Below are positions 3,484 through 16,687 of a stretch of DNA of 64,000 nucleotides, one piece after another. The DNA is from a phage. Positions within the stretch are counted from its first letter, which is position 1. Each line of letters begins with the position of its first letter. The notes beneath the pieces were generated by a model, which was not told the DNA's origin, made no database searches, and saw only the letters and a program-made list of their open reading frames with translations. The stretch lies in sequence record PZ379176.1. One strand, given 5' to 3'. Made by a program: the position numbers and the translations under genes.

Positions 3484-3733
3484 AACTATTGCGTTAATTG
3501 ATACGCATAATTACGGTGGCGTTACATTGTCCTTTGATGAATCAGTCGACGCTGGTTATTTGTCTTTTCTTTCTAAAGGTGAGATACAAAACATACGCTT
3601 TCCTATTGTCTGTTTAGTGCAAGATTATCTAACTGTTGGGAAGTATTTAGCCCAACGCGGGATTCTCCTGTCGCTGGAAGAAGTGGAACAGATTAGCGTA
3701 GCATTTTTTGGCGAGAATAGCAACGATGAATAG
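3464..3733 (+). CDS. hypothetical protein
   Basis: ORF track frame; ATG at 3464 or 3473 overlapping previous stop. Confidence 0.45.
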   Translation: MIPMGNETIALIDTHNYGGVTLSFDESVDAGYLSFLSKGEIQNIRFPIVCLVQDYLTVGKYLAQRGILLSLEEVEQISVAFFGENSNDE

Positions 3734-3828: not shown

Positions 3829-4194
3829 ATGGGTGTTATCAAGTTTGTAGTGAAAGTATTTGTAGGCTTCTTTCTGGTTGTTCTCCTGTTAGGTGTCCTG
3901 CTGTCATCTATGGGTAGCGTTAAGGCTGCAACATTCTCCCCTGATACGGTTGACGGTTTACAGTGTACCTATCTCGTAGAGAATTACGAAACTGGTAAAC
4001 AGTCACCTAAAGTTATTATTTTGCATGTAAATGATTTTGATCATGTGCAATCAGATAACAAAGCTATTCTGCTGGTAAATGAAACTACCGGTAAACAAAT
4101 CACGATAGATCACTTGATGCGCTCATCGTTGACGCTCTTTGATGAGTCCATGAATGAAATTGAGTCCGGTAATGGTCAATGTGTAAATCCATAG
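3829..4194 (+). CDS. predicted secreted or membrane protein (N-terminal hydrophobic signal-like segment)
   Basis: N-terminus MGVIKFVVKVFVGFFLVVLLLGVLLSSMGSVKA; SD AAAGG upstream. Confidence 0.55.
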   Translation: MGVIKFVVKVFVGFFLVVLLLGVLLSSMGSVKAATFSPDTVDGLQCTYLVENYETGKQSPKVIILHVNDFDHVQSDNKAILLVNETTGKQITIDHLMRSSLTLFDESMNEIESGNGQCVNP

Positions 4195-4470
4195 GCTTAA
4201 TCTTTCTCCTGTATTGTGCCGTAGTCATGCCTATGGTCATAATCTATCTGATGCTTTAAATCCTTCCTATAAGCCTCGCTATGAGGCTTTTTCTTTTCTA
4301 AGGTGATTGTATACCTTACTCCCTTTTAGCTCATTGTGATGCGTTATAGGCCGCTTGTTATCGCTTTACAAGCCTTTTCCTATGATGTATCACGTTCGCC
4401 CGCTCTTTTACCTTCCTATAGTGAAAAAGTTTAAAATATTTTGTTTTACCCTATTGCATCCCTCACTGAT

Positions 4471-4479
4471 TAATGTATA
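4471..4479 (+). promoter_or_regulatory. TAATGTATA motif (candidate phage-specific promoter element)
   Basis: Exact 9-mer also found upstream of genes at 36225, 42593 and on the minus strand at 52425-52433. Confidence 0.35.
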
Positions 4480-4579
4480 CTTCATTTCATCGGGTACGAT
4501 GTAAAACATACAAGGCAAGGAAACTTGCCCCGCTCTTTAAAAATCAGGCTAGAAAGTGAAAATATTCTTAAAAAGAGTA

Positions 4580-4608
4580 TTGACACCGAAAACAGCCTGA
4601 TATATAGT
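4580..4608 (+). promoter_or_regulatory. sigma70-like promoter (TTGACA-N17-TATAGT)
   Basis: Near-consensus -35 and -10 hexamers with 17-nt spacer, inside a 2-kb ORF-poor region. Confidence 0.6.
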
Positions 4609-5212
4609 GAGCATAGTCAGCGATGACTTAAAAAATCCCGCTCTTTAAAAATATGATTTGTCTTACGGGTGGCGGCGACGTCATTACTATAAGGCGCTCA
4701 GTTAATCGGTAGAATTGATTCCTGATTCATACGTGACGCAGGCGGACAATAAGCAATATCAATAAGCCTTATTTGTTCGATACTTTCAAAAGATTAATGC
4801 TTGAAAGCGCACTAGATTCCCTGAAAGACAAATCAGACTTATCATCTTGCCCTTTCGCATAGATTCACGCGAGATAAGGGAAAGGAATTAAAAGAAGATG
4901 ATAAAAAGAGTTGCAAACGTGGTTAAAGTAGTCCATACTAACCACAAGTTAGCAAAACATCGCTAACTAGTTCCCAAATCAACGTATCGCGGGAAAGGTG
5001 GCACATAGTGCAGCGATTAGTTCAGGTGTAGGCGGCCTGTTAATGAATCAGTAAGCCTTCAATGTGACAGTGATTAGCAGACACTTTAAAAGGCTAAACG
5101 CTCTTTAACAATATGAGTCATAAGTTAAGCCTCACCGCTTAATCTTCAATCAAATAAAGCTGATTGATATATCCTCCCAATAGCGGGAACGACGAAAAAG
5201 ATTAAAAAGCGG

Positions 5213-5241
5213 TTGACAGCGAAAACAACATGATTCATAAT
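5213..5241 (+). promoter_or_regulatory. sigma70-like promoter (TTGACA-N17-CATAAT)
   Basis: Near-consensus hexamers; spacer shares CGAAAAC with the 4580 promoter. Confidence 0.6.
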
Positions 5242-6162
5242 GAGCACTCACTAAGCAAATCATCGCTTCAGTGAAAAGCGTAACAACGGCTAACAGTTGC
5301 ATAGTGTGAGAAAGCACACTGATAGATTTACCGCTCTTTAATAATTTAAACATTCTCCTATATCGGTTGAATATGCTTGATGATAATAACCATCGGAAAG
5401 CATACCAGATAAAACGGCGTAAAACTCCCTAAATTATCAGGGTAAACAGTTTTACATTCCCTTACTGGAAACGTCACCATTGATAAACGGATTCATTGAG
5501 TACACGCAAAGACTTAAGCTAATCGCCCACGGTTAAGGGTAGCGGCGGTCATCGCTAACATGGTGCTACGGTGAAAGAAGTTAATCAGGGTAGGCAATCC
5601 CGACGAATTAACGCTCAATTGAGAGCGGCGGTGAATGGTTAAAAAGTGGCAAATTGCTATTTAACAATAAGGTTTAGTGTGAACGTTTACGATGTGAACG
5701 GCTTGAGATTCATCTTATGATGAAAGTACATAGTCGGTTTATGTAGTAAACTTGCCGAAAGATATAAAACGTCGGAACATTAGACGGTCAATGACTCTTT
5801 CGCAATAGTATCCCGTAGTGGGCGATGACTAGCGATTGAGAGTTGATATAAAAGGATAGGCGAGAGCGAAAGCAAAGTAAACGATATTGCCGACGGTTAC
5901 AATAACGTAACTAATTAGAGTCGGACGCACTGCCTTATTGTGATGATTGATCATCGCTATCAGGTCGGCTTCGTTTATAGCGACTAATTAAAGATACCAG
6001 ATGAAACATCACGGATAAGGGGGCGGCAAGGTTAACTCCTGATAAGACCGCCCCGCTTACCTATAACTACTTACAATGAGTGGTTATAGTTAAGTCAATA
6101 GTGACTTGAATTGCTCATAGAGAGCGGGGCAATAGCGCCCTTACAATTGAAAGGTGAATATT

Positions 6163-8492: not shown

Positions 8493-9305
8493 ATGAAAGC
8501 ATTTGCATTGTCAGCTATTCTAGTTTTATCTGCCATTAGTGCCCCATCCTTTGCTCATTCTGACAAATGCTCACACTCTAAACAGTGTGAAGTCCAGCAG
8601 GGGCCGAAAGGTGATAAAGGAGAACAGGGTATTCAAGGCGAACAAGGTCCGAAAGGTGACAAGGGTGATCGCGGAGAGCAGGGCTTAAAAGGTGATACTG
8701 GATCGGCTGGCATCAATGGTAAAGATGGCATCAATGGTAAAGATGGCATTGATGGTAAAGATGGCATTGATGGTAAAGATGGCATCAATGGTAAAGATGG
8801 CATCAATGGTAAAGATGGCATTGATGGTAAAGATGGCATTGATGGTAAAGATGGCGCTCAAGGTGAAAAAGGTGATTCTGGTGCAGATGGTAAGAAAGGC
8901 GAAACTGGCCTAACTGGTGCAGCAGGTTTGAATGGCGTTGACGGATTAAATGGCAAAAATGGTAAAGATGCAGATATGTCTGCCGTTAATGCTAACGCCA
9001 AATCTATCAAAGCTCTGGAACAATCCACCAACAAACGTTTTGCTTCTTTGCAAAAACAAGTAGACCGTAACCGTGATCATGCCTCTGCTGGTATTTCTGG
9101 CGTGGCTGCAATGGCTAACATCCCGCAAGTAAGTCAAGGATCTGCTTTCTCTGTTGGTGCTGGGGTAGGTGCTTACGATGGTGAATCTGCTCTTGCTATT
9201 GGTGTTAGTGCTCGTTTCAATGAAAACGTAGTAACTAAAGCATCAGTGGCAATGACTTCAGAGAGTGACGCTGTTCTGGGCGCTGGTGTAAGTTACGAGT
9301 GGTAA
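8493..9305 (+). CDS. secreted collagen-like repeat protein with YadA-like C-terminal anchor
   Basis: Signal-like N-terminus MKAFALSAILVLSAISAPSFA; long Gly-X-Y tract (GPKGDKGEQG...GINGKDGIDGKDG...); C-terminus ends GAGVSYEW, resembling trimeric-autotransporter anchors. Confidence 0.7.
   Translation: MKAFALSAILVLSAISAPSFAHSDKCSHSKQCEVQQGPKGDKGEQGIQGEQGPKGDKGDRGEQGLKGDTGSAGINGKDGINGKDGIDGKDGIDGKDGINGKDGINGKDGIDGKDGIDGKDGAQGEKGDSGADGKKGETGLTGAAGLNGVDGLNGKNGKDADMSAVNANAKSIKALEQSTNKRFASLQKQVDRNRDHASAGISGVAAMANIPQVSQGSAFSVGAGVGAYDGESALAIGVSARFNENVVTKASVAMTSESDAVLGAGVSYEW
8709..8852 (+). repeat. eight tandem 18-nt repeats (GGCAT[C/T][A/G]ATGGTAAAGAT) inside the collagen-like gene
   Basis: Direct reading: units alternate ATCAAT and ATTGAT in pairs, encoding GINGKD/GIDGKD. 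Confidence 0.9.
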
Positions 9306-9805: not shown

Positions 9806-10005
9806 TCACTAGTGCCAGATTTGACAAACTAAATTCCTTTATAAACCAACCACTTAGTAAATTTATTGAAAAAGATGGCAGTATTCTGGGACTATGGGTA
9901 ATGCTCTGTATATAGACCCTTTGAAAATTTCTTAGAAAATAAGTTTACTAAATATAACTTACTTAAATAATATTACTTTTAATCTCTGATAAAAGGGTAA
10001 ATAAT

Positions 10006-10302
10006 ATGACTTTAGAAGTATATAAATTCCTTTTTGTAAGCTGTTTAACTATCAGCGTTCTAGGATTTATTATTCTCAGAAACAAAGCAGCAAGCTGGGA
10101 GAGAATGTATAAATCCCTAGTTCGAGTGGATGAGATGTATAATGAGAAAGTTAAAGTAACACTTAACGATCTTATTATGCAAGTAGAGGACAGAAACAAG
10201 CGTCTTCAGAACCTCAACCACGAAGTGTTACGCCTTGCTCGTGCTAATGAAGACTTGCGAGTGGCTATTGCTAAACAGCAGGAGATTAACAATGAAGCAT
10301 GA
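10006..10302 (+). CDS. membrane-anchored coiled-coil protein
   Basis: N-terminal TM helix then heptad-like region. Confidence 0.5.
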   Translation: MTLEVYKFLFVSCLTISVLGFIILRNKAASWERMYKSLVRVDEMYNEKVKVTLNDLIMQVEDRNKRLQNLNHEVLRLARANEDLRVAIAKQQEINNEA

Positions 10303-10549
10303 TATTAATACAGCCCCTGTAGTCAAGCAACTGAAAGACCTGAAGGTGGGGAGTGTTTTTGAAACTGTTCCACCTAAAAATAAAATATATCTTACAGTAA
10401 AGCTAGATTCCTCAACCGTTTATTCAGCTAGTTGGAAGCCTGACGAAAGAGTAGTAGTAGATCTCACTTCGGATAGAATAACAATGTTGAGAAAAGATAC
10501 TGTTGTTCAGGTAGTTGATAATGCTCGACTTACCAATAAGGTGGATTAA
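10292..10549 (+). CDS. small paralog-family protein (member 1)
   Basis: About 80 aa; shared pattern L-x-x-L-K-x-G-[DS]-V-F with 11 other ORFs. Confidence 0.5.
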   Translation: MKHDINTAPVVKQLKDLKVGSVFETVPPKNKIYLTVKLDSSTVYSASWKPDERVVVDLTSDRITMLRKDTVVQVVDNARLTNKVD

Positions 10550-10551
10550 AG

Positions 10552-10788
10552 ATGAAAGTTAATATTAAATCCGATCGTACAATGCTTCGCTTAAATAACA
10601 TGAAGCCGGGCGTTCTATTTGAGCGTAAAGACTCTCTTTATATTAGAACCGACACACTATACGCAGATAACTATGTGAACTGTGTTGATGTGGTAACTGG
10701 AAAGCTCATGCCTTTTAAACGGGATGAAGTCTGCCAAGTACGTAGTGATCTTCACATAACCAACATAGAGGCTAAAGATGAAGATTGA
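10552..10788 (+). CDS. small paralog-family protein (member 2)
   Basis: Same family pattern; tightly packed. Confidence 0.5.
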   Translation: MKVNIKSDRTMLRLNNMKPGVLFERKDSLYIRTDTLYADNYVNCVDVVTGKLMPFKRDEVCQVRSDLHITNIEAKDED

Positions 10789-11029
10789 TCTTGAGATGAA
10801 AGCTAAAGAATTGTGTGTGGGTGATTTGAAACTTGGTGATGTATTCCAAGTTAAGGCAACATGTATTGATTATTACATGATCGTTCAGTTATATACACCA
10901 CATGTGTCAGAGACTGATCTTCGGAATGGTTGTGTAGTGCTCAGTTTAAGCACCAATCAAGTAATGAAGCTAGATTCAAACTTACCTGTTTCAGTTATCC
11001 ATGATGCAGTAATTACCAATCGGAAGTGA
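10778..11029 (+). CDS. small paralog-family protein (member 3)
   Basis: LKLGDVFQVK motif. Confidence 0.5.
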   Translation: MKIDLEMKAKELCVGDLKLGDVFQVKATCIDYYMIVQLYTPHVSETDLRNGCVVLSLSTNQVMKLDSNLPVSVIHDAVITNRK

Positions 11030-11244
11030 ATATGAACATTGAAAAGAAGGTTGTTGACGAGGCTGTTCAGTTACGATCTCTTGAAACACATGATGTATTT
11101 GTGTGGGGAGGCAGTCTGTTTCAGAAATCTGCTTATGCTGTAGAGGGCGGGGTTCGTTGTTTTAATATCTTCAACAATGAGATGCAAATCCTTCCTAACT
11201 TCGCTCATGTTAATAAACTTATCCACCTTTCTATATATCAATAA
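11026..11244 (+). CDS. small paralog-family protein (member 4)
   Basis: LETHDVFVWGG motif; ATGA overlap. Confidence 0.5.
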   Translation: MNMNIEKKVVDEAVQLRSLETHDVFVWGGSLFQKSAYAVEGGVRCFNIFNNEMQILPNFAHVNKLIHLSIYQ

Positions 11245-11254
11245 GGGCAATTAG

Positions 11255-11473
11255 ATGGAAATTAAAGTAGTTGATTATCCTAAATATGCAAATGCAGAGG
11301 ACGTTAAAGGTGGTGATGTTTTCTCTTATGATAAACGTTTCTGGCTGATGCTAGAAGATAAAACCCCTGATGGTTTGTGTAAGGCTGCTAACTTGAGCAG
11401 TGGTTCTGTTGAAGTCTTCGGTCTATCAACCACTGTTATGCCACGACCTGATCTGTGTTTATCCCAAAAGTAA
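11255..11473 (+). CDS. small paralog-family protein (member 5)
   Basis: VKGGDVFSYDKRFWL motif. Confidence 0.5.
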   Translation: MEIKVVDYPKYANAEDVKGGDVFSYDKRFWLMLEDKTPDGLCKAANLSSGSVEVFGLSTTVMPRPDLCLSQK

Positions 11474-11831
11474 CACCGACTTATAGCCCTTGTGTTTATC
11501 AGAGGGCTATGTGAGGGTGTTCCTCATTAACTTATTAATTCAGGCATATGCCACACCGCTAGGGAGAGCTTGCTCGAACATCCGGTGTTAGACTAAAACC
11601 TGTTAATTTTCGAAAGACTTTCCGATATGTAGGGGTACGTATTGGTTTGGGATTCAGGAGACTTCCTAGGGGTAGGAAGTCTTCACCAGTTGGAATAAGA
11701 GATAGCTCTAGAACCTGAACTCTTAGGCAGAGAAGGTCGGCAATGAGTACGCGGTCAGAATTAGCCTCCTGACTAGGGCTATCCCTTATATCAACTGGCA
11801 ATAATGCCTCCACTAACAAAGAGAGATAGGT

Positions 11832-11972
11832 ATGAAAGTATCAACCAAACGTATGAACCGCCCTGAACGTATGGATGCAGTAGCTAATGGTGCTCTGAAA
11901 CTGGAAGGCTTTTGGATTCATGCAATGTCAGCCATCCGTAACAAGCAAGGTAATTGGACGTATAACAGTTAA
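11832..11972 (+). CDS. hypothetical small protein (46 aa)
   Basis: ATG with SD-like GAGAGATAGG; followed by a terminator; below ORF-track size cut-off. Confidence 0.3.
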   Translation: MKVSTKRMNRPERMDAVANGALKLEGFWIHAMSAIRNKQGNWTYNS

Positions 11973-11984
11973 CAAATAAAGAGA

Positions 11985-12014
11985 GGCTGCCTTCGGGCGG
12001 CCTTTGTTGTTTTA
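11985..12014 (+). terminator. rho-independent terminator
   Basis: GGCTGCC-ttcg-GGCGGCC then TTTGTTGTTTT; same type as 41053. Confidence 0.6.
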
Positions 12015-12057
12015 ATTAAGGGACAACTCTTACTTAAACTAACAAGAGGAAGCTAAA

Positions 12058-12234
12058 ATGTCTAAGCAAACAATCAAACATACGCAATCTGGTTACTCTT
12101 ATGTCAACTCTCCTTGCTGCGGTGCTCGTATTAATCTGGTTAAGGAAGAGGTTCGTATCGTTCAGCGTGGCGCTACTGTTGTTCGTTCATGCTGTGTCTG
12201 TGGTAATGATATTTTTATCAAAGGTAAAGTATGA
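12058..12234 (+). CDS. small zinc-ribbon-like protein (58 aa)
   Basis: SD AAGAGGAAG; Cys pairs CC...CCVC; ATGA overlap with next gene. Confidence 0.4.
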   Translation: MSKQTIKHTQSGYSYVNSPCCGARINLVKEEVRIVQRGATVVRSCCVCGNDIFIKGKV

Positions 12235-12455
12235 TTATCGTTCGCTCTGAGCCTAAAGATAACACTTTTGGTAGCCTCCGTAATGGTGATGTGTTCTCTC
12301 TAGAGATAGATGGGGATACAAAACCTCCTTTATATATGAAGGTTATGCACAGACATGCTATCTGTATAAATAATCCTGAAACAAGATTTACGTTTGACAG
12401 AAGTTGTCCTGTCAAATTTTATCAAGCTACCCTAAACGTTAGGAGAGTAGGATGA
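12231..12455 (+). CDS. small paralog-family protein (member 6)
   Basis: LRNGDVFSLE motif. Confidence 0.5.
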   Translation: MIIVRSEPKDNTFGSLRNGDVFSLEIDGDTKPPLYMKVMHRHAICINNPETRFTFDRSCPVKFYQATLNVRRVG

Positions 12456-12703
12456 AAAACTTCCAAGCTGCACCAATAACTAAAGTGATTGCAGTTAATG
12501 ATGTGATGATGGCTGTTCCTCTGAACACTCGTTATATTGCAATTGACAAGATGGGATATGTATGGGCTTGGAAGATCAAGCCTAGTTATAACGCACTGTT
12601 TGATGAGTTTGTTTGTACTGGTACTTACAGTCCTACATTCTTGGGTTTGTTTAGTGAGTTTGATGGTCAGTATAAAATCATCACACTCCCTGCTTGTGCT
12701 TGA
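12452..12703 (+). CDS. small hypothetical protein (possible divergent family member)
   Basis: ORF track; ATGA overlap. Confidence 0.45.
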   Translation: MKNFQAAPITKVIAVNDVMMAVPLNTRYIAIDKMGYVWAWKIKPSYNALFDEFVCTGTYSPTFLGLFSEFDGQYKIITLPACA

Positions 12704-12710
12704 GGTTATT

Positions 12711-12875
12711 ATGTTCAAGTGGTTTAAACGTTTCTTCCATCTCCATGATTGGGAGACAATAAAAGAAGTTCGTTTACACATATATAATGAGATTGGTCAA
12801 ATAGAAGACACAGGTACTCGTTATATACTTCGATGTAAAACATGTGGTCATATCACCAAGCGAGATATGATCTAA
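12711..12875 (+). CDS. hypothetical small protein (54 aa) with C-terminal CxxC
   Basis: ATG at 12711 after GAGG; track ORF 12537 starts in an overlapped frame. Confidence 0.35.
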   Translation: MFKWFKRFFHLHDWETIKEVRLHIYNEIGQIEDTGTRYILRCKTCGHITKRDMI

Positions 12876-12883
12876 ATAATTCT

Positions 12884-12959
12884 GCGCTCTTAGCTCAATG
12901 GATAGAGCAGTAGCCTTCTAAGCTATTGGTTACAGGTTCGAGTCCTGTAGGGCGCACCA
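12884..12959 (+). tRNA. tRNA-Arg (anticodon UCU), CCA encoded
   Basis: Manual cloverleaf: acceptor GCGCTCT/AGGGCGC, D-arm GCTC/GAGC, anticodon loop CTTCTAA, T-arm ACAGG-TTCGAGT-CCTGT, discriminator A + CCA. Confidence 0.85.
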
Positions 12960-13053
12960 CATTTAGGGCTAGTATGGGTGCGGCACCAGAGTTAGTGTAT
13001 CCCTGTTGAGGCAAGTGCTTTTATAACAGTGGGAATTACTTTCTTAGTGAGCT

Positions 13054-13080
13054 TCTGGTTCGATTCCAGATAGTCCACCA
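13054..13080 (+). other. tRNA-like T-arm plus 3-prime acceptor-like sequence without a foldable 5-prime half
   Basis: TCTGG-TTCGATT-CCAGA then TAGTCCACCA; no matching acceptor, D or anticodon arm found upstream. Confidence 0.25.
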
Positions 13081-13099
13081 AATCTAATAGGAGGTAATT

Positions 13100-13399
13100 A
13101 TGAGTTGGGGTGGTGTAATATCCTTAATCTGTATCTTCCTTGTCTGCATAGCCCTTACAGGCTGCGTACAGAGCCGTCCTGATGGATGGTGTGCAGTAGC
13201 AGTGGAAGGTGTTTGTGTTTCTCGCTGGTATAAGGGTGAGAAGATTCCTTCTGGTGAAATTGATATGCGATGGAACGGAGCAACCTGTTCTAATGCTAAC
13301 CCTTCTATCAACGAAGAGAAGTCTACGCCAGACAATGTTGTGATTGATACAGCGTTGTGGTGTGGTGGCTCTGTAACAACAACCGGTAAGGAGTGGTGA
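13100..13399 (+). CDS. predicted lipoprotein
   Basis: SD AGGAGG; signal peptide ending in lipobox-like LTGC (MSWGGVISLICIFLVCIALTGCVQS). Confidence 0.6.
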   Translation: MSWGGVISLICIFLVCIALTGCVQSRPDGWCAVAVEGVCVSRWYKGEKIPSGEIDMRWNGATCSNANPSINEEKSTPDNVVIDTALWCGGSVTTTGKEW

Positions 13400-13400
13400 T

Positions 13401-13598
13401 ATGAATTACACATCCACAAAGGTGTTAATTGATTCAATTAATAGCTCCTCAGAAGCTGTACAGGAGCGTTTAATACAAGATGTTAGCAATGACATTAAGT
13501 TCTTTGTTAAGAGCCGCCTGTTAGGTTCTAAGGCTTATTACAGAGCTAAAGCAGAGCTTACAAAGAGGGTGTTTCTTTTACATGGTTTGGTATATTAA
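13401..13598 (+). CDS. hypothetical small protein
   Basis: ORF track; starts 2 nt after previous stop. Confidence 0.4.
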   Translation: MNYTSTKVLIDSINSSSEAVQERLIQDVSNDIKFFVKSRLLGSKAYYRAKAELTKRVFLLHGLVY

Positions 13599-13607
13599 GG
13601 AACTTAT

Positions 13608-13829
13608 ATGAAACTAGACTCTAAGCAGTCACTTAAAACCGTTGAGCTGTCCACGCTGCCAAACGGAAGTATTTTTGGTCATGATAAACACTTCTGGATT
13701 AAAACAGACATCATAGACGATGGATATATCACCTGTGTCAATCTTTGGAACGGTTCAGTGGATGGTTATCGCCCTAGCGCAAAGGTAGTCCCTCAGCCTG
13801 ATGCTAAGGCTGTAGGTTTAGTTTACTAA
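13608..13829 (+). CDS. small paralog-family protein (member 7)
   Basis: LPNGSIFGHDKHFWI motif. Confidence 0.5.
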   Translation: MKLDSKQSLKTVELSTLPNGSIFGHDKHFWIKTDIIDDGYITCVNLWNGSVDGYRPSAKVVPQPDAKAVGLVY

Positions 13830-13838
13830 GGAGTTCAT

Positions 13839-14012
13839 ATGAGCTGTTATGGTGGCGGTGAAGTGTGTGATGACGACGACATGGAATCCAATGGTACATG
13901 CCCTGACTGTGGGTGTGAGACATTTGATGGAGTGTCAGTATACCCTGCCTGTAGTTACTCACCAGTGATCTGTAAAACATGTGGAGATCAACCTTGTGAC
14001 CAGTCTTGTTAG
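13839..14012 (+). CDS. small Cys-rich protein (57 aa)
   Basis: SD AAGGAG; 11 Cys; below ORF-track cut-off. Confidence 0.35.
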   Translation: MSCYGGGEVCDDDDMESNGTCPDCGCETFDGVSVYPACSYSPVICKTCGDQPCDQSC

Positions 14013-14013
14013 T

Positions 14014-14238
14014 ATGTTAATAGCCTATCTGATAGGATCAGTAGTATCAGGTGTTCTGATTAAGATTATAGATGTTAAAGGTAATCAGTGTTTCAGAGGT
14101 TGGGATGGTGAGCCAGACCTCGGAAAGATAGCAGCTATGGTTTTCTTGTGGCCTATTATTGCTGTACTATTTATAGCACTCGTATCATGGGCTGCTCTTT
14201 GGGATTTCATCCTTCCTAACAAAAAGTATGAGGACTAA
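14014..14238 (+). CDS. small membrane protein (two hydrophobic helices)
   Basis: ORF track frame; ATG at 14014. Confidence 0.45.
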   Translation: MLIAYLIGSVVSGVLIKIIDVKGNQCFRGWDGEPDLGKIAAMVFLWPIIAVLFIALVSWAALWDFILPNKKYED

Positions 14239-14728
14239 TGACTGAAGAATTTTTAAAGTGGTTTGGTGATACCTTCAAAGAGTATCTATTCTCTCCAGAA
14301 GACTTTGAAGAACTGAAAACCTACACTTGGTTGGCTTGGAGAGATAGCCGACGAGAGATGAATAAGTAATATCGTGAAGGATTCTTACGAGAGTCCTTTG
14401 AGATAGGACTTCAGATCTCCTATCAAACTAACATTCATGTAACTAGCCCATAAGGGCGTTACCCTTTAATAACCCAGCCCACTAAGGGGGCGGGAGTTTA
14501 GTGCTGGATTAGCATAACGCTTATTCCTACAAAGGCAACCGATTGTTAGGTCTTACATGCAATATTAATTAATAGGATAAGGGAGGATTCGTCCCCTCCC
14601 CTATTCATAAACTATTAGGAGAGTACATTAGCTGATTAGCTGTGGAAGGTAGGCCGATATCTACAGCGTGGCCCAGAGCTAGTGTACTCCCCAATAACTT
14701 TAGGGTAAATGTGGAACAACCTTTTAAT

Positions 14729-14874
14729 TACAGGTATAGCTTATGGGACTCAGTAATGCAGAGTCTACGGTAAAGCAGTCGCCCGTGGTCGAATGACCGT
14801 ATGCCCATTGGATGCATTCCTTTGGTGATGGCTAGGGAGTCCGAGCGTAGGTTCGAATCCTACACCTGTAACCA
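14729..14874 (+). tRNA. tRNA-like element with canonical T-arm and ACCA end but about 70 nt of extra internal sequence
   Basis: T-arm GTAGG-TTCGAAT-CCTAC (14847-14863), 3-prime ACCTGTA+A+CCA; only complementary 5-prime strand TACAGGT is at 14729-14735; anticodon not resolved. Confidence 0.35.
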
Positions 14875-14902
14875 AATTGAATAATAGCTAATTGGAGGAT
14901 GT

Positions 14903-15214
14903 ATGAAAGCACGAAGAACTATATGGACTCCGATGCAGATTGAAAATCTTCGGAGACTAATCAAAGAGTACTCGGTTCAAGAAGTTGCTCAGATTATGAA
15001 TGTAACGGAGAATGCAGTTAACGCAGCTTGTACTAAATTCGGAATATCAAGAGCTTCAATCCGAGTTAAATGGTCTGAAGAAGAAGACCAGTTCCTTATC
15101 CGTAATGCTGGGTTCATGTCTATTCAGAGAATGGCTGACATGCTCGGTAGAAGTTATGCTGCTGTACAGAACAGAGCATGTATGCACCTTAACATTAGCC
15201 TCAAACTTAAATAG
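14903..15214 (+). CDS. DNA-binding protein with two helix-turn-helix-like repeats
   Basis: Two W-x-E-E-[LD] repeats each followed by HTH-like segment. Confidence 0.45.
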   Translation: MKARRTIWTPMQIENLRRLIKEYSVQEVAQIMNVTENAVNAACTKFGISRASIRVKWSEEEDQFLIRNAGFMSIQRMADMLGRSYAAVQNRACMHLNISLKLK

Positions 15215-15222
15215 GAATCAAT

Positions 15223-15477
15223 ATGAAAGTTAACGAATTGAACAAAACTATCAAGACTGTGAAACTCCACACTCTGAAGAAGGGCGATACCTTCCGGCTG
15301 GAAGAGAACGGTCCAATTCATATGGTCTGTACTGCGGCATCTACTAATTGGGTAGAAGTTGCACGAGATCGAGTCGTGTGTGTCAGACTGGAAGATGGAC
15401 ACTTAAGTGGCCCCGTTGAGGGCATCTCTGTTATTCCTGTTAAGGTTGAAGCTAACGTTATTAAGGATTCTAAATGA
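15223..15477 (+). CDS. small paralog-family protein (member 8)
   Basis: LKKGDTFRLEENG motif. Confidence 0.5.
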   Translation: MKVNELNKTIKTVKLHTLKKGDTFRLEENGPIHMVCTAASTNWVEVARDRVVCVRLEDGHLSGPVEGISVIPVKVEANVIKDSK

Positions 15478-15725
15478 AGATTACCCACAAGAAAGAAGAA
15501 GTGACCACGATTGATCTCAACTCCCTCCCCAGCGGAGCAGTGTTTAAATTCCCTGAGAGTGCTACTCTCTATGTTAAAGGGTCTGTGTCTGAAAGTCCTA
15601 ATGTAACCGTTAACTCTGATCGAACAATTACTCTTCGTCTATCCGATGGTAACGTAACAGCACCTTCTATCTGGTGCCGAGTTGTTCCTGTATCAGCAGA
15701 ACTTTTGGTGGATAATACGCAATGA
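15474..15725 (+). CDS. small paralog-family protein (member 9)
   Basis: LPSGAVFKFPE motif; ATGA overlap. Confidence 0.5.
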   Translation: MKITHKKEEVTTIDLNSLPSGAVFKFPESATLYVKGSVSESPNVTVNSDRTITLRLSDGNVTAPSIWCRVVPVSAELLVDNTQ

Positions 15726-15967
15726 AAATCATCCCAAAGAAAAAGGATAATACGGTACGATTGGAAACAATCATTCCCGGAAACCCTTTCGTGGTTCAGA
15801 ACGGAAGTGCCTCTCCTCAGTATTACATGAGGGTTGAAAATGCTTCTGGTAACATCCGTATAGCCAGTGGTTGGGTTCCTGTGGTAAACCTTTCCACAGG
15901 TGTGTTATCTGTTAAAGGTCTTGATGATCAGGTAGAAATGATTCGTATGTCAGTGGTTCAGGAGTAG
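15722..15967 (+). CDS. small paralog-family protein (member 10)
   Basis: IPGNPFVVQNG motif; overlap. Confidence 0.5.
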   Translation: MKIIPKKKDNTVRLETIIPGNPFVVQNGSASPQYYMRVENASGNIRIASGWVPVVNLSTGVLSVKGLDDQVEMIRMSVVQE

Positions 15968-16221
15968 TGCATATGAGCATTATTAACATTAAAGTTAAAG
16001 ACAAAGAGGAAAAAATCCTCCGCGTCAGAGATCTAAATATGTCAGATGTGTTCACTCTCCAAGAGTGCCAAAATCAAAAGGTTTATATGATGACAGCTAA
16101 AAGCAGGGGTTGTCAACCTGCTGGAGCTGTTAACCTAGGCACTGGAGAACTACGTGTCATCTCTGGTGATATGGTTGTTGGTGAGAAGTTTATTAAGGCT
16201 GAAATCATCTTAACTTCGTAG
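15967..16221 (+). CDS. small paralog-family protein (member 11)
   Basis: LNMSDVFTLQE motif. Confidence 0.5.
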   Translation: MHMSIINIKVKDKEEKILRVRDLNMSDVFTLQECQNQKVYMMTAKSRGCQPAGAVNLGTGELRVISGDMVVGEKFIKAEIILTS

Positions 16222-16453
16222 GGAAAACAAATGAGACGTAAAGCATATTCTTATGACGATATGATTAACCAGAAAGGCTTCGGTCAACGACAGCCTGACG
16301 GTTCAATTATCTGGTTCGTAAACGGACAGAAAAAGGTAGCTAAATAAGCCCTCTTCTCTCCTCCTTTTAGTACTATGACGCCTCTCTGTGGGCGGCCCGA
16401 TTTGCGTAGGGAATTCCCTCTACGCAGCCATAATTTTTTAAGGAATTTCCCCT

Positions 16454-16687
16454 ATGTCTAAAGTAAGCGCAATCGATGCAATCCGTCAACCGTTTCAGTT
16501 CCAATCCAAATCAACCCAAACCTTCAGCGAACCTAAGCAAATTCGCTTGGGTGGTACAGAGAAGACTGTGTTTGATCTGGCTAAAAACAAGAGCGTTACC
16601 GTAGTTGATGGTGGCACTCTGGTTAACGTTTCTCATCGCATCCGCACTGGCAAAACTGCCAAAGATCGTGCTAAGAAAGGTGAGTGA
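16454..16687 (+). CDS. hypothetical protein (77 aa)
   Basis: ORF track; follows hairpin and repeated 17-mer. Confidence 0.45.
   Translation: MSKVSAIDAIRQPFQFQSKSTQTFSEPKQIRLGGTEKTVFDLAKNKSVTVVDGGTLVNVSHRIRTGKTAKDRAKKGE

Follow-up and report, generated by a model that had tools for sequence, protein, structure and literature searches.

The nearest published analogue of the genes described here is a set of LSm-like early proteins of phage T4, GoF, MotB.1 and Frd.2 (Kim et al., 2025, PMC12152347): there too, several small-beta-barrel proteins of unknown function are encoded by early genes of a single lytic coliphage and were recognized by structure prediction rather than by sequence. True relatives exist in two long-studied model phages, gp7 of LUZ24 (YP_001671880) and gp21 of N4 (YP_950499), proteins of 74–77 amino acids (aa) that our family hidden Markov model (HMM) matches over the full length (E 2e-12 and 3e-18, respectively). 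LUZ24 gp7 was selected as an early ORFan in a published screen; on N4 gp21 we found nothing in the literature. Here we consider eleven small genes between positions 10,292 and 16,221 of a 64,000-nucleotide (nt) stretch of phage DNA, sequence record PZ379176.1, the whole of which we call the window. As judged from sequence comparison, these eleven open reading frames (ORFs) are an ancient, syntenic expansion of one widespread phage protein family. By the same token the window is a Kuravirus (phiEco32-like) genome of the Gordonclarkvirinae; megablast of 10000–16500 matched 147 phage records, the closest being Shigella phage ShigP1 (98.6% identity) and Escherichia phages DE5 and SkaterBoy_Bas90 (97.9%), with phiEco32 at 93%, all of them members of the genus Kuravirus.

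The window members, like LUZ24 gp7 and N4 gp21, lie amid small genes of unknown function, but those two phages carry a single copy per genome against eleven here (of roughly 125 genes, or ~9% of the gene content). The T4 proteins differ in being longer (119–141 aa, with extra C-terminal parts), in numbering only three and in forming no tandem arrays. Homology to GoF and MotB.1 was considered and rejected, with hhalign probabilities of 0.5% and 0.3%, respectively.

A sequence-only reading of this region had proposed 11–12 paralogs. All eleven ORFs that it listed firmly exist at their coordinates, each on the + strand in the window orientation, and the profile evidence shows that they are homologous and make up one true family. 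The searches covered 466 six-frame ORFs of the window of at least 35 aa. An iterative HMM search started from the ORF at 13608 converged on nine members at E<1e-3, followed by 12231 (E 0.0027) and 11026 (E 0.09). A second HMM, built from 120 outside homologues none of which is 45% or more identical to any window member, picked exactly the eleven from the 466 ORFs (E 2.6e-18 to 2e-7; twelfth-best E 0.25), although this test is not fully independent because the outside sequences were themselves collected with a window-derived profile. PHROG profiles are independent of our alignments. Each member matched its own PHROG over the full-length profile at E 1e-26 to 1e-55, with the exception of 10292 (best match phrog_9955 at 6e-13), and ten of the eleven cross-matched further PHROGs within the set 6570, 7832, 9955, 16423, 7431, 8365, 12612, 33163 and 10911 at E 1e-3 to 1e-9, 12231 matching phrog_10911 alone. 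Since members cross-match several PHROGs, that database divides one superfamily into about nine groups, all labeled ‘unknown function’. Pairwise BLASTP gave only a few clear links (15223–15474, 11255–13608, 10552–13608 and 10292–10778). The core of the shared signature that had been described earlier, [LMVI]xxG[DSNAV][VITLP]F, occurs in 12 window ORFs, 10 of them family members, against a mean of 2.0 in residue-shuffled ORFs.

The suspected twelfth paralog, the ORF at 12452–12703 (+), was rejected; it gave no family HMM match and instead matches the N-terminal part of phrog_1972, a 160-position profile of unknown function, with 89–94% identity in six of six relatives. The recurring best non-member was the homologue of phiEco32 gp78 at 26371–26556 (E 0.25–0.5, not significant), and the adjoining homologue of RNA polymerase-binding gp79 (26126–26374) was not matched by any family HMM search. 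The outside-only HMM found no further member among the six-frame ORFs elsewhere in the 64 kb.

The members are listed below by orthogroup letter, with E-values from the outside-only HMM; core orthogroups are those present in all seven Gordonclarkvirinae genomes compared, accessory ones vary, pI is the isoelectric point, and dN/dS the ratio of nonsynonymous to synonymous substitution rates.

10292–10549, + strand: member N, 85 aa, pI 9.3; E 1.7e-11; matches phrog_9955, 16423 and 7832; accessory, common to phage Paul only among the seven relatives compared; its start overlaps the ORF at 10006–10302 by 11 nt.
10552–10788, + strand: member B, 78 aa; E 1.6e-15; phrog_16423 at E 4e-49, cross-matches to 6570, 7832 and 7431; core; dN/dS 0.03–0.18, its 44 orthologues varying chiefly in loops.
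10778–11029, + strand: member C, 83 aa; E 1.1e-13; phrog_9955 at E 8e-43; core, with strongly divergent alleles (54–98% identity among phages) and loop variability.
11026–11244, + strand: member L, 70–72 aa; E 2e-8; phrog_33163 at E 8e-55, phrog_6570 cross-match at 0.0026; accessory, found in NJ01 only among the relatives compared, and 99% identical to NJ01_132.
11255–11473, + strand: member F, 72 aa, pI 4.9; E 3.5e-13; phrog_6570 at E 3e-32; nearest paralogue member A (40% identity, BLASTP).
12231–12455, + strand: member I, 74 aa, pI 9.2; E 2e-7; phrog_10911 only; most divergent member; accessory, missing in EP335, SR02 and Paul; 4-nt overlap of its ATG with the preceding ORF.
13608–13829, + strand: member A, 73 aa; core; closest of all to the family consensus.
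15223–15477, + strand: member H, 84 aa; E 2.3e-16; phrog_7832 at E 1.5e-26; opens a four-gene tandem block; accessory, absent from phiEco32 and NJ01; 28% identical to its neighbor G (BLASTP E 6.5e-12, 12-sequence database).
15474–15725, + strand: member G, 83 aa; E 4.3e-13; phrog_7832 at E 3e-28; ATGA overlap with H; accessory, absent from SR02 and SU10.
15722–15967, + strand: member D, 81 aa; E 8.8e-14; phrog_7431 at E 2e-31; ATGA overlap with G; core.
15973–16221, + strand: member E, 82 aa; E 7.8e-14; phrog_12612 at E 6e-42 from residue 3 of the GTG-start ORF, cross-matches to 7431, 6570, 8365 and 9955; core, with divergent alleles (49–100% identity).

Two starts need adjustment. That of member E is probably ATG 15973 and not GTG 15967, because AGGAG lies 8 nt upstream of the former and both the PHROG match and the orthologues begin there, and that of member L is probably ATG 11032, because its orthologue P0026 begins MNIEKK. 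The statement that most members are translationally coupled survives in part: six of the eleven start codons overlap the upstream ORF by 4–11 nt, while one lies 2 nt past it and the others follow gaps of 5–10 nt. Purine-rich, Shine-Dalgarno-like sequences stand ahead of most member starts; because of these, the start/stop overlaps and the purifying selection described next, the genes are likely translated.

Across the seven Gordonclarkvirinae genomes and the window, the members sort into about 15 orthogroups, with 8–11 copies per genome, in a fixed order ([K or N] B C [L] F ... I ... A ... [J] [H] [G] D E ... [M or O]) that is conserved across the genera Kuravirus and Nieuwekanaalvirus. The five orthogroups A–E are the core, and the others come in differing combinations, so that copy content does vary among related phages as had been suggested. 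The description of the family as fast-diverging, on the other hand, is wrong, because close orthologues (at least 75% identity) have a pooled dN of 0.026, dS of 0.304 and dN/dS of 0.09, no higher than the 0.12 of fifteen neighboring non-family genes; by this measure they are under purifying selection. The window paralogues are mutually only 23–40% identical, and ten of the eleven resemble some outside sequence more closely than any window paralogue, so their diversification is old. What does set the family apart is a difference in presence and in alleles: of 66 gene-by-genome comparisons, 24% gave divergent alleles (45–75% identity) and 27% absence, together 52%, against 11%, 12% and 23% for 90 comparisons of neighbor genes, a contrast that is descriptive, as the comparisons are not independent. 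In orthogroups B (44 sequences), C (33) and E (16), the barrel core described below does not vary; differences cluster in the linker that follows the N-terminal MKI, in the turns that follow GDVF and NLxTG, and in the loop joining strands 2 and 3.

The family is larger than the sequence-only reading had supposed. When 1.84 billion cluster representatives were scanned in full with HMMER, 1,501 clusters (50% identity) matched at E<=1e-3, and no database names the family, even though these at least 1,501 clusters include proteins of two long-studied model phages. The 145 best representatives newly listed include 126 stand-alone proteins of 60–100 aa, to which the listed matches run mostly end to end; another 14 are 110–250 aa long, 11 of these with two matched stretches (natural two-domain fusions). 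Two giant proteins (2,217 and 3,223 residues) each have several copies of the domain. In a chromosomal Bacteroidota protein, P0113, an N-terminal SprT-like metalloprotease domain is followed by five tandem barrel copies; its gene lies at 3583–5019 on L007 and at 6001–7437 on L008, where SusC/SusD-type genes lie upstream. P0113 represents a cellular use of the phage domain and possibly a clue to the type of ligand. Salmonella phage 7-11 has four members and PKM.Hi.22.6 at least six; a BFVD structure search adds likely relatives, by predicted structure, in phages of Pseudomonas, Klebsiella, Proteus, Erwinia, Vibrio, Yersinia, Morganella and Serratia. Short metagenomic contigs carry two or three members side by side, hence such arrays are not unique to kuraviruses, the largest copy number found in this analysis being the 8–11 of the Gordonclarkvirinae.

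Database searches were silent as to function. Neither the window members nor 70 diverse relatives had a match in Pfam, NCBIfam or PDB sequence searches, a word-indexed homologue search with 70 diverse members returned only hypothetical proteins and no Pfam family, and no functional clue came from the genomic surroundings of P0160, a giant multi-repeat protein, or of most metagenomic members, which were too anonymous or too short. Public records of members are always hypothetical or carry propagated mis-annotation, with no validated function. The 72-aa NJ01_132 is implausibly labeled ‘putative two-domain glycosyltransferase’, and equally implausible are the labels ‘DNA helicase’ on an 85-aa family member and ‘Endolysin’ on a 77-aa BFVD structural match (EcoN5 records P0088 and A0A7L4XW47); the adjoining 98-aa coiled-coil ORF (phi32_116; window 10006–10302) is likewise labeled ‘DNA helicase’. 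The kuravirus papers that we checked do not describe the paralogy of these genes.

The consensus of the family is MKIEKKKKKKTVTLGDLKPGDVFKYEEEYYMKTDEEDEESEEINCVNLSTGELKEFDEDTEVIPVNAELVIKE, with the pattern MKI-x8-12-L-x2-L-K-x-G-D-V-F ... Y-M-K-T ... V-N-L-x-T-G ... V-x-P-V. The predicted fold is a five-stranded SH3/Tudor/KOW-like beta-barrel. An AlphaFold2 (AF2) model of member A from a 28-sequence alignment has a mean predicted local distance difference test score (pLDDT) of 81.6, above 90 in the core, with strands at 22–25, 28–37, 40–45, 51–54 and 59–62, and that of member I, the most doubtful member, gives the same barrel (pLDDT 78.7) with BFVD neighbors overlapping those of member A. These models have the five antiparallel strands and closed barrel of ~60 residues that define SH3-like small beta-barrels. 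The best structural neighbors are the uL2 C-terminal domain, EF-P/eIF5A domain I, Spt5 KOW, CarD, the UvrD C-terminal domain and Tudor domains. Such cellular SH3-like/Tudor/KOW domains (uL2, EF-P/eIF5A, Spt5, CarD, the RNA polymerase-interacting domain of UvrD, FeoA and VapX) are only 8–18% identical to the family; judged on these models, the likeness is at fold level only and is uninformative on the ligand. No window member matched the KOW and EF-P models of Pfam (PF00467, PF08207) at E<=1, the family profile aligned to E. coli EF-P with an hhalign probability of 0.2%, and the family gave no match to the Pfam LSM or Hfq models that carry the Sm1/Sm2 motifs. The lone EFP_N match, to one repeat of the giant protein P0115, was sub-threshold (22.8 bits against a cutoff of 23).

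Over the 70 diverse members, the only invariant or nearly invariant positions are F23, G20, G49 and V60, and no polar or aromatic surface residue is conserved. Because only hydrophobic and glycine core positions are retained, a shared catalytic site or a common (small) ligand is unlikely. The surfaces differ in charge as well: window members range from pI 4.9 to 9.3, with five of the eleven at 8.7 or above, most outside stand-alone members are acidic (median pI 5.2, 63% below 6), and the repeat loops of P0113 are strongly basic (+4 to +10 per repeat). Thus one scaffold bears different surfaces, and together with the HMM homology, the predicted barrel and the concentration of variation in loops this sustains the earlier notion of a conserved scaffold with divergent surfaces.

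The same reading had placed the genes in the early region, and their block corresponds by synteny to the genes that experiments assigned to the early class in phiEco32. The phiEco32 counterparts by synteny are gp115, 114, 113, 109, 104 and 98–95, and the SU10 members (gp096–098, 102, 107 and 111–114) all fall within a block classed as early from the phiEco32 macroarray work; published early genes are gp82–122 in YF01 and CDS 69–125 in SU10. By analogy with these three phages the family genes would belong to the early class. Upstream of them lie strong sigma70-like promoters at 2247, 4580 and 5213, each with 11 of 12 consensus positions, matching the published layout of phiEco32 and SU10, in which the early cluster starts with one promoter plus three in a spacer. 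The spacer of the window, 4194–6154 (+), is ~2 kb and unusually long for a phage, has no ORF of 100 aa or more, and holds the promoters at 4580 and 5213 with a terminator-like hairpin at 4271–4289 just upstream of them; this agrees with the published account of three early promoters in SU10 and in phiEco32. A separate element, TAATGTATA, which we take to be the phiEco32 gp36-dependent promoter element, occurs five times in the window (4471, 36225, 42521(-), 42593 and 52425(-); 0.75 expected), with no occurrence in the family region.

The variable loops on a fixed core lead us to propose that each orthogroup would bind a different partner, and the reading we tentatively prefer, as possible rather than probable, is that the proteins are non-enzymatic binding modules with diversified loops, with one partner per orthogroup, mostly host proteins. 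They would be made early in infection from a densely packed, often overlapping run of genes, each gene supplying one stand-alone barrel of ~73 residues. The invariant residues would form the core of the barrel, and recognition would fall to a surface made up of the variable N-terminal linker and the loops between strands. Each orthogroup would thereby have its own partner, most likely a host protein of defense or housekeeping, which would be sequestered or blocked. The five core copies might serve conserved needs, and the roughly ten accessory orthogroups and divergent alleles might be exchanged among phages according to host strain. The dN/dS of 0.09 and the orthogroup order fixed across two genera point to real genes with non-redundant roles.

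Several observations weigh against this proposal. The five core orthogroups are highly conserved, which looks more like housekeeping of the phage cycle than an arms-race arsenal, and whole-gene dN/dS gives no sign of positive selection. The fold is common to many RNA- and DNA-binding domains, and basic members make up nearly half of the window set. Tandem fusions and multi-repeat proteins could mean that copies cooperate on one polymeric ligand. Between the early promoters and the arrays there are terminator-like hairpins (7085, 8413 and 11982), so early transcription is taken here from phiEco32 by analogy, and of the six early proteins that proteomics found in SU10 lysate, none belongs to the family.

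The last of these, with the small size of the ORFs and their hypothetical or mis-annotated public records, is what would be expected if they were ORFs arisen by chance, duplicates in decay or selfish filler in a junk-tolerant region. We regard this explanation as barely credible and effectively refuted by the sequence-level selection and conservation data: the pooled dN/dS is 0.09 at a dS of 0.30, all eleven ORFs are intact, the orthologues of annotated members are likewise intact and keep their syntenic order from genus to genus, Shine-Dalgarno-like sequences precede most starts, AF2 predicts the fold with confidence, and homologues fill more than a thousand clusters.

The fold and the charge bear on a more serious alternative, that these small beta-barrels bind nucleic acids as Sm/Hfq, KOW, Tudor-like or cold-shock-like domains do and modulate RNA stability, translation, transcription or DNA transactions of phage or host, in which case the paralogues would differ in sequence or structure preference. 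The structural neighbors from uL2, EF-P/eIF5A, Spt5, CarD, UvrD and Tudor domains speak for it, as do the five window members of pI 8.7 or above, the analogous T4 LSm-like early proteins with their proposed RNA role (PMC12152347), and the five basic repeats behind the SprT-like domain of P0113, for which, at +4 to +10 each, binding is plausible from charge alone. The predominantly acidic character of the stand-alone members, the lack of any basic or aromatic surface residue conserved family-wide, and the lack of sequence relation to EF-P, GoF, MotB.1 or the Pfam LSM, Hfq, KOW and CSD models argue otherwise, and on balance we consider it somewhat unlikely.

Small beta-barrels such as Sm/Hfq often oligomerize, and the paralogues could instead be subunits of one assembly with a single function, an LSm-like mixed ring or stacked barrels. 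The long representatives described above (14 of the 145 listed, 11 with two matched stretches) and the protein with five copies indicate that copies do act in cis; adjacent, often overlapping genes would favor similar stoichiometry, and the five core orthogroups always occur together. Copy number, however, goes from one (N4, LUZ24) through four (7-11) to 8–11, so a fixed multi-subunit complex is not a property of the family; in addition, accessory orthogroups come and go independently, and the members lie in three or four separate blocks rather than in a single operon-like unit. We therefore judge a common assembly to be quite improbable.

Returning to binding modules with one partner each, a role in anti-defense or host takeover, as the sequence-only reading had suggested, is plausible on circumstantial grounds: the early position, the presence/absence and allele polymorphism, the behavior of LUZ24 gp7 and the resistance of the phage group. 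When 13 early ORFans were expressed in P. aeruginosa PAO1, four inhibited growth and LUZ24 gp7 was not one of these, which fits an inhibitor of a non-essential target. The Gordonclarkvirinae are reported to be remarkably resistant to restriction-modification and other tested defense systems without known inhibitors; this is compatible with an unrecognized set of inhibitors and is not a specific pointer to the family genes. Pfam, NCBIfam and PDB searches, made without a dedicated anti-defense library, gave no match of the window members or the 70 diverse members to known anti-defense families (Ocr, ArdA, DUF2829/Tad2 and others).

Small anti-defense gene clusters are familiar from anti-CRISPR loci and from the T7 and T4 early inhibitors Ocr, Gp5.9, Arn and Dmd. 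The likeness lies in small, non-enzymatic, early products that are non-toxic to the host and in a content that varies among close relatives, but such clusters bring together unrelated folds and not a single iterated scaffold as in the window. A bolder form of the proposal is that the eleven copies are a loop-diversified inhibitor scaffold, a ‘monobody’-like library in which each copy neutralizes a different host immunity or stress protein, with N4 gp21 and LUZ24 gp7 likewise inhibitors. This we consider doubtful and, as it stands, unlikely; if true, it would explain why the Gordonclarkvirinae resist nearly all tested restriction and defense systems without a known inhibitor.

The definition of the family turns a block of ‘hypothetical’ genes into a tractable set with one scaffold, about 15 orthogroups and mapped variable loops. 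The BASEL phage SkaterBoy (Bas90), 97.9% identical over the region, grows on K-12 with O-antigen, making deletions and defense-panel tests feasible. If the copies are inhibitors with different targets, they would be a rich source of new anti-defense or host-modulating proteins and would bear on why kuraviruses escape most defense systems; if they bind nucleic acid or each other, they would represent a new phage module for gene expression or DNA handling.

Lastly, a few features near the arrays deserve mention.

8493–9305, + strand: early-region ORF of 270 aa with a signal peptide, repeats of the collagen triple-helix type (PF01391, E 6e-22) and an outer-membrane anchor resembling that of YadA (PF03895, E 2e-19).
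12058–12234, + strand: Cys-rich ORF of 58 aa with CxxC pairs, adjoining family members.
12884–12959: tRNA-Arg(TCT), the sole RNA gene found in the window.
13839–14012, + strand: Cys-rich ORF of 57 aa with CxxC pairs, adjoining family members.
14369–14903, + strand: 534 nt without a convincing ORF, between a 43-aa ORF and a D5-like regulator gene.

The 3' end of the ORF-free segment is GCGTAGGTTCGAATCCTACACCTGTAACCA and looks like the T-arm and acceptor end of a tRNA; ARAGORN made no call in the segment, Rfam scans gave nothing significant, and its fold is no better than that of shuffles. It may be a decayed tRNA or a novel RNA. The two Cys-rich ORFs are conserved in relatives, with dN/dS of 0.02–0.19 against the five closer ones (0.34 for 12058 against EP335), and probably encode zinc-ribbon proteins. 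Because of its signal peptide and its PF01391 and PF03895 domains, the product of 8493–9305 is by domain content a trimeric-autotransporter-like protein in a lytic phage; phi32_119, the orthologue in phiEco32, bears the annotation ‘tail protein’, and the product may serve as a surface-remodeling or superinfection-exclusion factor.

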